From an uncultured Acidimicrobiia bacterium (GTDB taxonomy: Bacteria > Actinomycetota > Acidimicrobiia > Spongiisociales > JAOTWH01), in contig CAYFYE010000008.1 in the NCBI GenBank assembly GCA_964347285.1, forward strand, positions 1-40,823: 40,823 nucleotides of DNA, in the 5' to 3' direction. Under the pieces are notes generated by a model that was not told the origin of the DNA, ran no database searches, and saw only the letters and a program-made list of their open reading frames with translations. Each line of letters begins with the position of its first letter. Position 1 is the stretch's first letter. Made by a program: the position numbers and the translations under genes. This document shows positions 34,682 to 40,823 of this stretch, one piece after another.

Positions 34682-35215
34682 CTAACTGCCGGGTGGGCCG
34701 GCACCGAGCAGGACGATCACTCCGTCCCGGGCCGAGGCGGTGGCCACGCGGGCGGCCAGGTCGCCGGGCACCGCCACCAATCCCGAGGCATCGACGGCCA
34801 ACGGATCCCGGGGGGCGTTGGCGGCGACGATTCCCTCGACCACGGTGCCGGAATCGGTCTCGACCAGCCGCACCGGCGTGCCGATGGGCACCTCTCCGGG
34901 GAGGCGCACCGGGACCGACCACCAGCCGGCCGGGAAGGTCGGGCCGGACGTCACGGTGGAGGGGAGGAGCGGTTCGCCGGCCTGCGAGGCCACCGCCACC
35001 GTGCCCCCGTCGATTTCGGTGTGGGGCAGCAAGCCGGCCGGCACCTTTCGCCAGTCCACCATGTCGTCCGCGAGGGCATCCCCGGCGGCCACGTCCGTCC
35101 GCAGGAAGGGGTGGAGCTCGGTCCGGTCCGGTCGGAGTTCGATCGCCAGGGCCAAAAGCAGCACCGAGGCCGCCGCAGCCCATCGCAGGTAGGGAGGACG
35201 GCGAAACCAGTGCAT
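34682..35215 (-). CDS. SAF-domain protein (Rv0990c-like)
   Basis: N-terminal TM, D..AGD.L and GEPL SAF-like signature; start ATG 35215. Confidence 0.6.
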   Translation of the reverse strand: MHWFRRPPYLRWAAAASVLLLALAIELRPDRTELHPFLRTDVAAGDALADDMVDWRKVPAGLLPHTEIDGGTVAVASQAGEPLLPSTVTSGPTFPAGWWSVPVRLPGEVPIGTPVRLVETDSGTVVEGIVAANAPRDPLAVDASGLVAVPGDLAARVATASARDGVIVLLGAGPPGS

Positions 35216-35269
35216 GGGGGCCACGGTATGGGGGACGGCGGCACGAGGGAAGGGTTCCCTCCTCGGGGG

Positions 35270-35938
35270 TCAAGGCTGCGTGGTGCTCCGTCGGTAGCCG
35301 ATCACGTAGTCCGGTGTTTCGATCCCTGGGGCCAGGCGGGGATCGGGGATGGGTTCCCCGGAGCACAGCCGGAGCGGAATGACCCCGGCCCACACGTCGA
35401 GGTTGTAATCGCCGGCTTCGTCCTCGGGAGGACCGGAGCGGGACTTGATCGAGGCTTCCTCGAGCGGGACCGCCAGCATGAGCGTGGTGCGGAACTCCGA
35501 GTCGCTGGGATGGCGGGCGTCGGCCCAGCGCCCGGGCAGGACCCGTTCGGTGAGTATCTCCATCGAGCGGAGCTTCTCGTCGGGATCGGTGAGGGGAGCG
35601 GCCCGGCCGTAGATGATCACCGAGCGGTAGTTCATCGAGTGGTTGAAGACCGAGCGGGCCAGGACCAGGCCGTCCAACAGCGTGATAGCGATGCACACGT
35701 CAACTCCAGCCGACAGGGTGCGCAACATGGTGCTGGCCGGCGAGCCGTGGAGGAAGAGCCGATCTCCATCCCGGGCGTGGATGGTGGGAATCACCGTAGG
35801 TCCGCCTTCACGCAGGAACCCCACGTGGCAGTAGAGCGCCTCGTCGATGATGGAGTAGGCGGTGGCCCGGTCGTAGCTCGCCCGGTCGTCGTGACGACGA
35901 ACCCGGGTTCGTCCGGTGATCTCGAAGGTTTCGCTCAC
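35270..35938 (-). CDS. Pyridoxamine 5'-phosphate oxidase-like flavin-binding protein (NimA-like)
   Basis: RASYD, CHVGF, LHGS, DGLVLARS.F.HS.NYRS, SIKSR.GPP, WAGV.P; start set at GTG 35938. Confidence 0.88.
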   Translation of the reverse strand: MSETFEITGRTRVRRHDDRASYDRATAYSIIDEALYCHVGFLREGGPTVIPTIHARDGDRLFLHGSPASTMLRTLSAGVDVCIAITLLDGLVLARSVFNHSMNYRSVIIYGRAAPLTDPDEKLRSMEILTERVLPGRWADARHPSDSEFRTTLMLAVPLEEASIKSRSGPPEDEAGDYNLDVWAGVIPLRLCSGEPIPDPRLAPGIETPDYVIGYRRSTTQP

Positions 35939-35954
35939 CGGCGGCCCGACGACC

Positions 35955-36737
35955 TCACCCTTCCCAGTCGGCTCGGGCCGTCGCACAGGGGCATTTCCTC
36001 GGGGTGCGCACCGCCTCCGGGATCAGGGTGCGGAGCACGTCGTGCAGCGTTGCGATTCTCTCCGAGAAGCGCTCGAGCACTTCGGCATGGGTGACCGGAG
36101 CGATCTCTCCCTGCACGCCCACGTCGTAATCGGTGACCACGCCGATGGTGACGTAGCACATCTCCAACTCTCGGGCCAGGGAAGCCTCGGTGGACTGGGT
36201 CATGTTGATCACGTGCCACCCTTGCCCGGCGAAGAACGCGCTTTCGGCACGGGTGGAGAAGCGTGGGCCCTCCACGACCACCACCGTTCCGGTCGGGTGC
36301 ACAGGGATCCCGCTCTGCCGGCACGCGTCGATGGCCAGCTCCCGCAACTCCGGGCAGTAGGGGTCGGCAAACGACAGGTGGCCCACCGGTGACCCTTCGA
36401 CAAAGCTGTTGATGCGCCGGTAGGTGAAGTCGACGAGTTGGTCGCACACGACGAAGTCTCCGGGCGCGAACTCCATGTCGAGGCTGCCCATTGCCGACGG
36501 GCCGATGATGCGCTCGACGCCCAACTCCTGCATTGACCACAGGTTGGCCCGGAAGGGCAGCGAGTGCGGTGGGAACTCGTGGGAGCGGCCGTGCCGTGGA
36601 ATGAAGGCGACCTCGATGTCGCCCACCCGTCCTACGACGGGAGGGGCCGAGGGTTGGCCGTACGGTGTGGCAACGGCGCGCTCCGACCCAGCCTCCACGA
36701 AATCGTAGAAGCCGGTACCGCCGAAGATGCCGATCAC
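35955..36737 (-). CDS. mtnP: S-methyl-5'-thioadenosine phosphorylase
   Basis: GIFGGTG, PRHG, EGPRFSTRAES, NMT, VTDYD. Confidence 0.9.
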   Translation of the reverse strand: MIGIFGGTGFYDFVEAGSERAVATPYGQPSAPPVVGRVGDIEVAFIPRHGRSHEFPPHSLPFRANLWSMQELGVERIIGPSAMGSLDMEFAPGDFVVCDQLVDFTYRRINSFVEGSPVGHLSFADPYCPELRELAIDACRQSGIPVHPTGTVVVVEGPRFSTRAESAFFAGQGWHVINMTQSTEASLARELEMCYVTIGVVTDYDVGVQGEIAPVTHAEVLERFSERIATLHDVLRTLIPEAVRTPRKCPCATARADWEG

Positions 36738-36796
36738 GCTAAGACTCCCGTCTCGACCCGGAGCGGCCGGATGGTAGCCCCTAGACTCGGCCCGGC

Positions 36797-37384
36797 GTGG
36801 AACCGCCGGCTATCGCTGCGTTCATCGTCGGTTACCTCATCGGCAGCCTCGACTTCGGCGTGATCGTGACCCGGCTGGCCGGGATCGACATCTACTCGGT
36901 GGGGAGCGGAAACCCCGGAGCCTCCAATGTGTTGCGCACGGTGGGCAAGGGCGCTGCGGCAGCCACGCTCGCCGGTGACGTGGCCAAGGGTGTGGCGGCG
37001 GCGATGATCGGCGAACTCTGGGTGGGGGAGGCGGCCGGCTTCGCGGCCGGGTTTGCGGCCGTAGCCGGGCACTGCTGGCCGCTGTGGCACGGGTTCAAAG
37101 GGGGAAAGGGGGTGGCCACGGCTGTTGGGGCGGTGCTCTGGCTCGAGCCGTTGCTCGGGCTGGTCCTCATAGTTGGTTGGGCAGCAGTGGTCGCGGTGGG
37201 ACGAATCGCCTCGGTGGCCTCGCTGCTGGTGGCGCTGGTCCTCGTCCCTGCCCTAGCGTTTTTCGGCCATCGAGGGTGGTCGCTCGGCTGGGCGGCGGCG
37301 ATGGCCGTCTTGGTGGTGACTCGACACCACCAAAACATCCGCCGGCTCCTCGCCGGCCGGGAGCGACCGATTCGGCCGGGCTAG
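36797..37384 (+). CDS. plsY: Glycerol-3-phosphate acyltransferase PlsY
   Basis: GYLIGS, GSGNPGASN, FKGGKGVAT, RHHQNIRRL. Confidence 0.95.
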   Translation: MEPPAIAAFIVGYLIGSLDFGVIVTRLAGIDIYSVGSGNPGASNVLRTVGKGAAAATLAGDVAKGVAAAMIGELWVGEAAGFAAGFAAVAGHCWPLWHGFKGGKGVATAVGAVLWLEPLLGLVLIVGWAAVVAVGRIASVASLLVALVLVPALAFFGHRGWSLGWAAAMAVLVVTRHHQNIRRLLAGRERPIRPG

Positions 37385-37411
37385 GCTGGGTTTTCGCGTT
37401 TTTCCGAATAC

Positions 37412-37440
37412 TTGTAAGGCTCAGACCCCATGCCTAACCT
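37412..37440 (+). promoter_or_regulatory. Housekeeping sigma-70-type promoter
   Basis: TTGTAA-N17-TAACCT. Confidence 0.55.
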
Positions 37441-37462
37441 CGCGCCAACAGGAGGAAGCGAC

Positions 37463-37882
37463 ATCGAGATCGTCCTGTTCATCTTGCTGGCAGGTGTTTG
37501 GGCGGCACTTCTGATCCCCTCGTTCATCTCCTCACGGCGAGAAGCGCCGATCAGTTCCACGGAGAGCTTTGCCCGCTCCACGGCTCGCCTGGCCGCGGTT
37601 CGGGCCGCCTCGATCGAGACGGTGGCCAACCGTGAGCGGGTGCGGGCCCGTCGCCGCCGGGTGCTGGTCATGCTTGCGGTGGCAGCGTTGGCGACACTGG
37701 CGGCGGCCATCTGGTCGGGAAGCTGGACGGTGTTGACCATCAACCTCATTGTCGACGCTTCGCTGGCCGCCTACATCGGGCTGCTCCTCCAGGTCAAGGA
37801 GCAAGCCCGGAGGGCGACGCTGGAGGCTCTGCAGGAGGAGACGACGGCCGGCGACACCGAAGTCCGAGTAGTAGCCGGCTAG
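37463..37882 (+). CDS. Short SepX/GlpR-like membrane protein (probable ATC start; alternative ATG 37430)
   Basis: N-terminal TM with W-A-x-x-L-x-P, RARRRR followed by two TMs; synteny with SAF protein, MTAP and tRNA-Ala(CGC); SD AGGAGG 7 nt before ATC. Confidence 0.6.
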   Translation: MEIVLFILLAGVWAALLIPSFISSRREAPISSTESFARSTARLAAVRAASIETVANRERVRARRRRVLVMLAVAALATLAAAIWSGSWTVLTINLIVDASLAAYIGLLLQVKEQARRATLEALQEETTAGDTEVRVVAG

Positions 37883-38511
37883 TGCCGGCTCCCGACCTCG
37901 GTCGTCTCGAAGAAGCGGCCCGCAGCGCCCTCGAAGCGAAGTTCGCCGCTCGTGAAGTGGGCCTGGCTGCGTCGCGCCGCGTGATCCGGGCTTCCGCCAA
38001 CGCCATTCGAGCACTCCATCGCAATGAGTACGACCGGGCCGAGGCCAAGCTGGCCGAGGCCGAGGAGTCGTTGGCCGAGGCGACGTCTGCGCTGGCCGAC
38101 CACACCGACATCCTCCACGCCGGGTTCGTATCCGACGCCGCCAAGGAATTCGCCGAGGCCCGACTCACCGCAGCGCTCTTTGCAGGCACCGCACTTCCCC
38201 TGCCCGAAGAAATCGGCGTCGGCGTCGCTCCCTATCTGAACGGTCTGGGCGAGGCGGTGGGTGAGCTGCGGCGGCGGTTGCTCGACCGGCTTCGATCGGG
38301 GGAGGCGGCGGCCGCCGAAGAGGCATTCGCGTCCATGGAGGCCATCCAAGAGGTCCTCGAGACGATGGATTATCCCGATGCCATGACCGGCGGATTGCGG
38401 CGCACCACCGACGTGGCCCGCAGTCTGATCGAGCGGAGCCGGGCCGATCTCACCACCACCCTGGTGCAGGAGAGGCTGGGCGAGCAGCTGCGGAGGGCCG
38501 GGGGGACCTGA
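37882..38511 (+). CDS. Translin/TRAX (C3PO)-family protein
   Basis: All-helical; RE...SR.VIR.S..AI..LH, KEFAEA and YLNGLGEAVGELRR, LRR..D motifs; 1-nt TAG/GTG overlap with upstream gene. Confidence 0.85.
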   Translation: MPAPDLGRLEEAARSALEAKFAAREVGLAASRRVIRASANAIRALHRNEYDRAEAKLAEAEESLAEATSALADHTDILHAGFVSDAAKEFAEARLTAALFAGTALPLPEEIGVGVAPYLNGLGEAVGELRRRLLDRLRSGEAAAAEEAFASMEAIQEVLETMDYPDAMTGGLRRTTDVARSLIERSRADLTTTLVQERLGEQLRRAGGT

Positions 38512-38542
38512 GGGGCCGCCGCTACACTCGGCCCGTCATCCT

Positions 38543-38616
38543 GGGGGTGTAGCTCAGTCCGGCAGAGCGCTTCCCTCGCACGGAAGAGGCCACGGGTTCA
38601 AATCCCGTCACCTCCA
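38543..38616 (+). tRNA. tRNA-Ala (anticodon CGC)
   Basis: GGGGGTG/CACCTCC acceptor stem with G3:U70, CTTCC-CTCGCAC-GGAAG arm, GGTTCAAATCC; TACACT -10 at 38523. Confidence 0.95.
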
Positions 38617-38621
38617 CGCAT

Positions 38622-38651
38622 AGAAGCCCCTGCTCTCTAGCGGGGTTTTCT
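38622..38651 (+). terminator. Intrinsic terminator after tRNA-Ala
   Basis: CCCTGCT/AGCGGGG stem followed by TTTTCT. Confidence 0.65.
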
Positions 38652-38936
38652 ATGGTCTCGGGAGAGATCGCGACGATCAGCCTTTCGTCAGGAGTCCGCG
38701 AGGAACCCGCGGCAGAGTCGTGCCAGGCCGTGTCAAGCGCGTCGGCGGCGGCTTCGTCAAGGCCATCGAACAAGTGACCGTAGACGTCGAGTGTGGTGCG
38801 GATAGAGGCATGCCCAAGCCGCTCCTTGATGACAGACGGGTGCACGCCTCTGGCGATGAGCAGGGCCGCGTGAGAATGGCGAAGGTCGTGGAAACGGCAC
38901 GGTTCGCCGATCGAGGCTCGCACAGCGGGGAGCCAA
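38640..38936 (-). pseudogene. Tyrosine recombinase (phage/ICE integrase) C-terminal remnant
   Basis: FHDLRH...LGHASIRTTLDVYGH catalytic box II present; no recognisable N-terminal or box I region; abuts tRNA 3' end; boundaries approximate. Confidence 0.8.
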
Positions 38937-39087
38937 GCGGTGGATCTCCGACCAGGCCCCCACATCATCACCCTGCCGGTTCTGCGCTCGTCTAGCTGTC
39001 GTGCTCTCGTCAACGATTGCGCGTCGCCGGATGGTCGTCGTGGGGAGGGATGTCCTCGAAGGACGAGTGCCGGTCGACTGCCAGCGT

Positions 39088-40587
39088 TCACTCGCTGAGT
39101 GTTATCTCCATCACATCACCCATGGTTGGCACCCGCGTGGTGGACCCGTTGATCAGGTCGTGGATCAACAGCTCCGAGCCCTGGAATGCGGAGGCCTGGA
39201 TCGGAGTGACGAGGAAACGGCCGTTGGGAGACCAGTCCAACGCACCAAGCTGCCCTCCTGCAAGGGAGTCGGTGACATGATGACCGGTCACGGCATCCCG
39301 ACTCCCCAGTTCGACGATGTGAATGTTCGATCTGGCTCCCTCTGATTCGGCGCTCAGCGCCAGGCGGGTCCCATCGGGAGACCATGCCAGGTTCTCCAAT
39401 CCGGAAACAGGCACAGCAAGGTCGATCGCGGTCCAGTCATTCGTGAGGTCGAAAATGCGGACCCGTGCGCCCTCCGGACCCGGTGATGGGAGCAGGGCAA
39501 GGTGATCCCCGTCCGGTGACCACGCCGCGTCCCAGAGCGGCTCACCCATTTCGAGTCCGGGGACGGCGTCGCGGCGGCGCCCGTCAGGAGACAGCAGGAA
39601 CGGGCCAGACTCTGCGCCGACCAGATCCGGCTCGGGGACCCAGAGCGTCGTTCCGTCCGGCCCTTCCGCGAGCAACCAGTAACTCTCGACCCGTGCAGTC
39701 TCGGTGCCTTCGTCGTCGAGGAGCACGGTCGTCATGGTCTCGGTCGTCTCATCCCAGATTTCTAACTGGATTCCCGAAGTGAGCCACTCGTTGATGCCAA
39801 CCGACGCATTGTCGTCGAATGTCAGTTCGAGCAGCGCGGCCGGTTGGGCGTCGTTGTCGGAGACGTTGAGCGTGTACAGCGTGATTGGGAACGGGTCGAA
39901 CCCGCGAGCAGATTCCAGCCACGCCAATCGACCCGGTTCGGTGGCGTGCCACGTCGCAAGACTGGCTCGCAGCCCGATCGCTTCCGCTGGCGGGTTCCGA
40001 TCACGCTGGTCGAAAGCAAGCGAGTCGATCTGGTGTGCCCAAGGGACAAGCCAGTCGATCAGGAGGGTCCCATTGTCGGCCAGGCGCGCATACCAGCGGC
40101 CGGAGGCGTCGAGCCCCACCGGCCACCCGTCGAACGGGATGCCCCAGGCTGACTCGTCGCGGGGGAATGACAACAGGGTGTCCGGTGCCGACTCCCAGGC
40201 TCGCCATCGCACAACGTCGATGCGGTCGTGGTACTCCGCGATCATCGTGATCGTGTCGGTGAACCCTGGGACCGCCTCTGCGAGCGGTAAGTTCAACGTC
40301 GCCAGCGGTCTCGAACGATCCAGCGACTCTGCCTCGGTCGTGAGGGTGGACTCAGCGGCCCGAGCGGCACTGGTCGACGTGCTCTCCTCGCTCGTCGTGG
40401 TGCTGATCGCGCCTGCTCGGCGGGTCGCATCCGGTTCACCCCCGGTCGGAGAACCAAGGAGCCATCCGAAGATGAACAACCCCACGGCAGCGACGACCGC
40501 GATCGGTCCCCATCTCCGACCTTGCTCTTCAGAGCCGCGTCGCGACGGACGGAACTCCGGGTCGATCGTTACCTGATCGTCTCCCAT
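39088..40587 (-). CDS. Membrane-anchored TolB/WD40-like beta-propeller protein
   Basis: N-terminal TM, S/T-rich linker, repeated WSPDG/WSPNG blades near the C-terminus. Confidence 0.75.
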   Translation of the reverse strand: MGDDQVTIDPEFRPSRRGSEEQGRRWGPIAVVAAVGLFIFGWLLGSPTGGEPDATRRAGAISTTTSEESTSTSAARAAESTLTTEAESLDRSRPLATLNLPLAEAVPGFTDTITMIAEYHDRIDVVRWRAWESAPDTLLSFPRDESAWGIPFDGWPVGLDASGRWYARLADNGTLLIDWLVPWAHQIDSLAFDQRDRNPPAEAIGLRASLATWHATEPGRLAWLESARGFDPFPITLYTLNVSDNDAQPAALLELTFDDNASVGINEWLTSGIQLEIWDETTETMTTVLLDDEGTETARVESYWLLAEGPDGTTLWVPEPDLVGAESGPFLLSPDGRRRDAVPGLEMGEPLWDAAWSPDGDHLALLPSPGPEGARVRIFDLTNDWTAIDLAVPVSGLENLAWSPDGTRLALSAESEGARSNIHIVELGSRDAVTGHHVTDSLAGGQLGALDWSPNGRFLVTPIQASAFQGSELLIHDLINGSTTRVPTMGDVMEITLSE

Positions 40588-40823
40588 GAATCACCGCCAG
40601 ACTCACCCCGATCTTCCCCCCCCGAGACCCAGCCAGCCAGAGTCCTTCGGCCACAAGCCACAACCGCCGCCCCGGTGATCTTCAATGGGAGCAATCGGGC
40701 TTTCACAACCTCGCCATCTACGTAGGCCATCGAGCGCGCCCGATTGGGCGACCACAGAACAGCCGCCCATTTCGGCACCTCGGCGCTCGTTACGGGGCCC
40801 CAGGCGTCGGATTCCAAATCCGC

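Follow-up and report, generated by a model that had tools for sequence, protein, structure and literature searches.

What does a bacterial relative of the C3PO nucleases do when its gene is wedged between a membrane-protein gene and a tRNA gene? The question is raised by a stretch of 40,823 nucleotides (nt), here called the window, which covers positions 1 to 40,823 of contig CAYFYE010000008.1 (assembly GCA_964347285.1) from an uncultured Acidimicrobiia bacterium of the order Spongiisociales. The gene is an open reading frame (ORF) of 209 codons at 37882..38511 on the + strand. It begins with a GTG, the sole in-frame start codon after the preceding stop, which shares one base (G) with the TAG stop codon of the ORF at 37430..37882 (GGCTAGTGCC), and its own stop codon is followed after a gap of 31 nt by tRNA-Ala(CGC). 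The list of ORFs, ARAGORN and Rfam agree on this layout, as it had been given in a preliminary description made from the letters alone, and the ORF stands far above chance with 5058 homologues at E<=1e-3 (8000 scored candidates in a word-indexed search). The encoded protein belongs to the translin superfamily, as a bacterial representative of its TRAX branch, TRAX being the catalytic subunit of C3PO. It is probably a homo-oligomeric, Mg2+/Mn2+-dependent nuclease of the C3PO type for short RNA, possibly also DNA, which is co-expressed with the upstream membrane-protein gene (SepX/GlpR-like, see below) and to which the tRNA gene is an independent neighbour.

The assignment to TRAX is carried by sequence and by fold. 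A phmmer comparison with proteins of solved structure aligns residues 8-202 with AfTRAX of Archaeoglobus fulgidus (3zc1, E 3.6e-20) and also finds NEQ131 of Nanoarchaeum equitans (E 7.5e-6). A family profile (A1) made from 75 full-length representatives sharpens these matches to 1.6e-45 for AfTRAX and 1e-20 for NEQ131 and extends them to the TRAX proteins of human (9.3e-14) and fly (4e-10); translin chains are reached only at E 0.03-0.06. The AlphaFold2 (AF2) model of the protein has a mean predicted local distance difference test (pLDDT) of 97.6 and a predicted template modelling score of 0.91, and consists of nine helical elements and no strands. Its top Foldseek matches are the chains of AfC3PO, with a template modelling (TM) score of 0.90 on the target, a root-mean-square deviation of 1.8 Å and 34-35% identity. 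NeC3PO, the N. equitans complex, follows at TM 0.84-0.86, the human and fly TRAX chains at 0.72-0.76 and translin chains at 0.66-0.72. Every strong structural match of the model is C3PO, TRAX or translin, and the reading as a TRAX or archaeal C3PO relative holds on all three counts of sequence, fold and acidic residues.

Public records suggest another identity for the protein. Its relatives are named 'translin' in JGI records and 'haloacid dehalogenase' in NCBI records, and the NCBIfam PRK14562 models carry the description 'haloacid dehalogenase superfamily protein'. Taken at their word, these names would make the protein a hydrolase of the haloacid dehalogenase (HAD) type. Enzymes of that superfamily have a Rossmann-like alpha/beta fold, and because the fold found here is all-helical, without a single beta strand, it is incompatible with a HAD-type enzyme; together with structural matches that all lead to C3PO, TRAX or translin, this leaves the HAD reading with practically no chance of being right. 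The name 'haloacid dehalogenase' looks like a mislabel that has been propagated, and it is flagged here as wrong for the TRAX-like family.

The residues expected of a nuclease are in place. In NeC3PO two metal ions are held by Glu82, Glu85, Asp117 and Glu121, according to PMC5100593, and in the phmmer alignment these correspond to E89, E92, E124 and E128. The first pair lies in the motif KEFAEA (K88-E89-F-A-E92-A; codons within 38146..38157 on the + strand, at 38146-38148 and 38155-38157) and the second in the motif GEAVGELRR (G-L-G-E124-A-V-G-E128-L-R-R; codons within 38251..38265 on the same strand, at 38251-38253 and 38263-38265), numbered exactly as they had been before. E124 is aligned opposite an Asp of AfTRAX, which the 3zc0 chain carries as Ala since a mutant was crystallised, and the earlier remark that Glu replaces the usual Asp in an otherwise matching acidic pattern is thus correct: all four acidic residues of the site are kept, the third of them as Glu. 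Of the 75 representatives 73 have E89 and as many have E92, all are acidic at position 124 (E in 57, D in 18), and E128, R130, R131, D177 and E184 are each invariant. In the actinobacterial loci that were collected by protein search, the third acidic site is Glu in 69 of 70, the seventieth being interrupted by a stop; the 80 loci gathered with a second, 14-row alignment (A2) are unusable for counts of Glu and Asp, as the search pattern itself contains the Glu of the third site. A FastTree phylogeny of 222 rows places 17 of the 18 Asp-type rows on one side. Because Glu is found in 69 of 70 actinobacterial loci and the Asp rows are grouped in the tree, the aligned sequences argue that Glu at the third ligand is the usual state in the bacterial clade rather than damage to the site. 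That the Asp type belongs to archaea is only indicated: two of ten Asp-type clusters carry a name, and both are archaeal (Thermoplasmata and Njordarchaeota).

A non-catalytic protein that binds nucleic acid, more like translin than like TRAX, would share this fold, seeing that translin chains match the model at TM 0.66-0.72, and would account for a third acidic residue unlike that of the characterised enzymes. The conservation of four acidic positions across 75 representatives speaks against such a binder, as does the family profile, which matches TRAX chains at 1e-9 to 1e-45 and translin at E 0.03-0.06 only, and the proposal is accordingly regarded as very improbable.

The TRAX-like protein is also predicted to associate with itself. 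A model of four copies has an ipSAE of 0.72 (0.72, 0.75 and 0.71 in separate runs) against 0.00 for the best control, with at least 85% of contacts shared and a partner pLDDT of at least 87; in calibration, 20 of 30 solved homo-pairs came up to the mark applied to ipSAE, as did 1 of 23 single chains. The prediction supports self-association, with the proviso that the pass may only reflect likeness to solved AfC3PO. The window's genome contains a single TRAX-like copy, and a separate translin partner was not found there, which fits the single-gene, homo-oligomer type of AfC3PO. The A. fulgidus protein (3ZC0, 3ZC1) is also close in its full-length alignment, its GELRR and IER motifs and the identity of three of the four acidic residues, but it has Asp at the third site and an archaeal host, and a genomic context other than the SepX/GlpR-like gene and tRNA-Ala found here. 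NeC3PO (NEQ131; 5JR9, 5JRC, 5JRE) shares the fold and a corresponding tetrad, although identity is only 22-23% and the third site is again Asp. Eukaryotic C3PO (3PJA, 3AXJ) is connected through the match of the family profile to human TRAX and through a TM of about 0.8 to its TRAX chains, but there TRAX is longer, only 15-16% identical and in need of translin partners, with which it forms a hetero-octamer; the roles in RNA interference (RNAi) and in the removal of pre-tRNA fragments are those described for the eukaryotic complex. Also close are translin-superfamily proteins of Chloroflexi, which fall into the same bacterial clade, carry Glu at the third site and are 48-59% identical, whereas the actinobacterial members have another, conserved neighbourhood.

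One part of this neighbourhood is the tRNA-Ala(CGC) gene (38543..38617, + strand), which is recognised by ARAGORN and by the Rfam tRNA model (70.4 bits), is a single copy in the assembly and does not encode its CCA end; an Rfam scan of 35000-40823 returns nothing besides it. The preliminary description had seen in the gene pair a possible RNA/tRNA-processing module. In such a module the nuclease would act on transcripts of the adjacent tRNA, either on the 5' leader or on read-through mRNA freed by RNase P. The adjacency on which this idea draws is real and old in Actinomycetota. Of 30 loci of the order, 25 have tRNA-Ala(CGC) downstream of the TRAX-like gene at a distance of 10-368 nt, with 24 copies on the same strand and 1 inverted. 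The automatic ARAGORN run found it in 24, and the 25 of 30 become 24 of 28 when two loci of unpublished genomes are set aside; the loci that do not show it are L003, for which only 125 nt are available, L006, L008, L014 and L026. Other actinobacterial families, about 32 of them, contribute 40 loci with proteins of 44-58% identity, and among these a same-strand copy follows within 150 nt in 13, a count for which the overlap case L067 was read individually, and within 2 kb in 20. The idea also gains from the lack of a terminator-like site between gene and tRNA, from Neurospora C3PO, which removes 5' pre-tRNA fragments (as cited in PMC5100593), and from a link between archaeal TRAX and SepRS that is described in PMC5424206.

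The tRNA nevertheless appears to have transcription signals of its own. A -10-like hexamer, TACACT (38523..38528, + strand), ends 14 nt before its 5' end, and among 59 distinct loci 50 show a TANNNT hexamer with its end 10-20 nt before the tRNA, against a mean of 3.0 and a maximum of 8 in 500 shuffled-sequence controls. This comparative approach was used because a scan of 36500-39200 with the sigma-70 consensus, which gave 0 promoters, is too strict for a GC-rich phylum. Directly 3' of the tRNA a terminator-like hairpin with a T-tract is found at 38628..38655 on the + strand (stem 38628-38645, 7 pairs, tail TTTTCTATGG). In five loci (L010, L076, L077, L082, L083) the tRNA is adjacent yet inverted, 28-308 nt from the TRAX-like gene, and these inverted copies have full -35/-10 promoters of the form TTGACG-spacer-TACAAT. 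An own -10 box and a tRNA on the opposite strand in five loci are difficult to reconcile with obligate co-transcription of the two genes.

The adjacency is also not a property of TRAX. The A2 search recovered, outside Actinomycetota, 51 loci of Chloroflexota, 2 of Armatimonadota and 4 that are otherwise labelled, and within 3 kb of the TRAX-like gene tRNA-Ala occurs in 0 of 51, 0 of 2 and 0 of 4, even though the Chloroflexota and Armatimonadota proteins are 48-59% identical to that of the window; the sole tRNA near any of these loci is a tRNA-Arg, 2.8 kb off, in L142. A second group of actinobacterial TRAX proteins (12 rows of the tree) has other neighbours and no tRNA-Ala, one locus alone (L045) having a tRNA-Asp 166 nt downstream. 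Conversely, the tRNA keeps its place where TRAX is missing. Five TRAX-less genomes of the order all retain the upstream membrane-protein gene. In two of them tRNA-Ala(CGC) comes some 100-200 nt after it and in a third some 1.2 kb after it; in the other two the tRNA was not seen within 1.4 kb. When the NCBIfam model SepX_GlpR_1 is run on a phylum sample of 121 genomes, with Corynebacterium glutamicum as a control that was duly detected, five genomes match at E<=1e-10, three of them above the curated cut-off. All five are without a TRAX match, in each of them the SepX/GlpR ORF is followed after 51-122 nt by tRNA-Ala(CGC) in the same orientation, and the intervening DNA shows no similarity to TRAX (best E 0.35). 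Because the tRNA stays where TRAX is missing, sepX/glpR followed by tRNA-Ala(CGC) is the ancestral order in Actinomycetota, with the TRAX gene placed between the two; the succession on one strand, with or without TRAX, can be seen in L157-L161, L153, L155 and the window itself (37430-38617). Owing to the separate -10 box, the inversions, the absence in other phyla and the TRAX-less genomes, the adjacency of the tRNA is read as inherited gene order that is not specific to TRAX, and action of the nuclease on the neighbouring tRNA becomes improbable. The module suggested earlier is therefore not supported: the conservation of the neighbourhood, which had been named as a check, is seen in Actinomycetota but not in the loci of Chloroflexota and Armatimonadota, and it does not depend on TRAX.

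The tighter partner of the TRAX-like gene is the gene on its other side. The ORF at 37430..37882 on the + strand encodes a 150-amino-acid membrane protein with three hydrophobic segments, which span residues 12-33, 78-96 and 100-122 or thereabouts. The NCBIfam SepX_GlpR models match it with at best 28.9 bits (E 9.4e-7) and do not reach their cut-off of 160. SepX too is described as crossing the membrane three times, and as very poorly conserved in sequence (bioRxiv 10.1101/2021.06.12.448176), and the name GlpR appears in PMC10522489. A homologue of the membrane protein is encoded upstream of TRAX in all 30 loci of the order, immediately upstream in 29, and of 38 ORFs upstream of TRAX in other actinobacterial families 22 give weak matches to the SepX/GlpR profiles. 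The membrane-protein gene precedes tRNA-Ala(CGC) like bona fide SepX/GlpR genes, such as those of the five of five SepX_GlpR_1 loci. PlsY, encoded by the next gene upstream, was considered as a further part of a conserved operon and rejected (1 of 30, 0 of 40 and 2 of 80 loci), and because it is not conserved the conserved unit is the pair of SepX/GlpR-like gene and TRAX-like gene. The translational coupling of this pair that had been proposed before is borne out as far as the overlap of stop and start by one nucleotide is concerned, from which co-translation itself may be inferred. Outside Actinomycetota the TRAX-like gene is preceded by thiE, thiL, a gene for an FmdB-type zinc-ribbon protein, genes for an E2 acyltransferase and GAPDH, and others. 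In Dehalococcoidia it often follows thiamine genes, which NCBIfam models identify in five loci as thiE (L100, L103, L114) or thiL (L090, L110); about 20 more upstream ORFs carry a C-terminal motif of the ThiE kind, 'VAIGGI...AVISAV', recognised by eye.

A pair of this kind invites the thought of a nuclease linked to the divisome, which would work with the SepX/GlpR-like protein, for instance in clearing nucleic acid from the septum or membrane, or would be co-regulated with division. The overlap of stop and start in the window, the retention of the pair (29 of 30 loci within the order, at least 22 of 38 in other actinobacterial families) and the fact that it is the pair and not PlsY which is conserved are all consistent with such a link, and NeC3PO is reported in PMC5100593 to cut DNA in vitro as well. 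However, SepX/GlpR-type genes occur without TRAX, the TRAX-like genes of Chloroflexota occur without SepX/GlpR (with thiE, thiL or the FmdB zinc-ribbon gene upstream instead), and a gene order that is kept within a single phylum can be due to inheritance alone. A divisome link is thus considered unlikely, if the least unlikely of the alternatives. Slightly more doubtful is its most specific form, in which the actinobacterial TRAX-like nuclease would be a lineage-specific accessory of SepX/GlpR, translated from a shared message in coupled fashion and active on RNA or DNA at the septum or membrane while the cell divides; if true, it would be a divisome role of a C3PO-type nuclease without counterpart in archaea or eukaryotes.

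The family to which the protein belongs is large, an exhaustive search at E<=1e-3 giving 1520 clusters at 50% identity. Within the order a match is found in 31 of 41 genomes and 24 of 30 genera (the unpublished genomes G011 and G022 included), and in a sample of Actinomycetota in 157 of 401 genomes and 123 of 254 genera (13 unpublished genomes included); several large actinobacterial families gave no TRAX match (0 of 33, 0 of 30 and 0 of 13 genomes). In the tree the window protein falls into a clade of 44 rows that has good support and includes 42 actinobacterial rows, inside the main actinobacterial group of 80 rows, the second group of 12 rows is placed elsewhere, and the Chloroflexota proteins interleave with the actinobacterial ones. 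The FastTree supports are modest, and no inference on transfers is drawn from this pattern. Bacterial members of the superfamily are not new. A 2012 survey in J Mol Evol by Gupta, Kale and Kumar, which PMC5424206 also cites, is quoted in PMC5100593 as naming Chloroflexi as the only bacterial phylum that has them, and the window protein is a further member of a family already known in bacteria. A search of the open-access literature, with subscription journals and supplements outside its reach, found no paper on the translin/TRAX family in Actinobacteria.

Taking family, fold, acidic tetrad, predicted self-association and synteny as the ground, a proposal can be made for the size of the oligomer, its dependence on metal, its substrate and its translation together with the upstream gene. 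By homology with AfC3PO or NeC3PO the protein would form a hollow homo-oligomer, in which inward-facing Glu89, Glu92, Glu124 and Glu128 would bind two Mg2+ or Mn2+ ions and cut short fragments of RNA, and possibly of DNA, as a housekeeping nuclease that cleans up. The gene would be expressed as the second of a two-gene unit with the SepX/GlpR-like gene for a putative divisome membrane protein, and tRNA-Ala(CGC) would be transcribed separately, from a promoter of its own and up to its own terminator. TRAX would thus have been wedged into an old sepX/glpR-tRNA-Ala(CGC) order and would not work on that tRNA.

Several observations weigh against this proposal or parts of it. The Pfam Translin model (PF01997), which had been put forward as a check on the family assignment, gives the protein 15.3 bits (E 0.02), under the gathering score of 25.9, so that in formal terms the check fails; since 50 of the 75 family representatives match the same model at E<=0.01 (best 8.4e-13), the score is taken as a limit of the reach of the model and not as a sign of another family. 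The best NCBIfam model, NF011160 (PRK14562), likewise stays below its cut-off, with 224.9 bits against 291. The change from Asp to Glu at a metal ligand could change or lower activity. The SepX/GlpR label of the upstream gene is drawn from weak profile matches, position and topology. Transcripts that read through from TRAX into the tRNA are possible because there is no terminator-like site between the stop codon and the tRNA, and with them a role related to the tRNA, if an improbable one. Finally, the TRAX-like gene looks dispensable: 10 of the 41 genomes of the order have no match, and some copies are possibly decayed, one being split into two frames (G014:C17:72006-72621), two carrying an in-frame TAG (G015:C2:22060-22659 and G021:C1:984268-984855) and one an in-frame TGA (G282:C127:2599-3168), with sequencing error as a possible cause in each case.

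The DNA beyond the tRNA is of a different character. At 38768-38917 on the - strand, within the ORF 38522..39091, there is a remnant of a tyrosine recombinase or integrase that matches positions 121-169 of the 172 of Pfam Phage_integrase (E 6.1e-10) and faces the 3' end of tRNA-Ala, as if left by an element that was once integrated there. An attR-like repeat of the tRNA 3' end was not found in the rest of the window (2.2 kb downstream of the tRNA), and the contigs of many relatives end near tRNA-Ala(CGC), which fits strain-variable DNA at this place. Further on, 39088-40587 on the - strand encodes a 499-amino-acid protein with an N-terminal hydrophobic stretch and only weak matches to beta-propellers of the WD40/PD40/TolB kind in its C-terminal half; it falls into no assigned family.

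C3PO and TRAX have so far been studied in eukaryotes, in the context of RNAi, tRNA fragments and microRNA decay, and in two archaea. The locus described here belongs to a family that is common in Actinomycetota (157 of 401 sampled genomes), appears to carry Glu at one metal ligand throughout the clade, and is tied to a gene of the SepX/GlpR type and not to the tRNA. The sepX/glpR-tRNA-Ala(CGC) order into which the TRAX-like gene is set may itself be of use, as it may help to spot highly diverged SepX/GlpR orthologues by their position. For the nuclease, the functional focus moves from the processing of tRNA-Ala to a general clean-up of RNA or a link with division.

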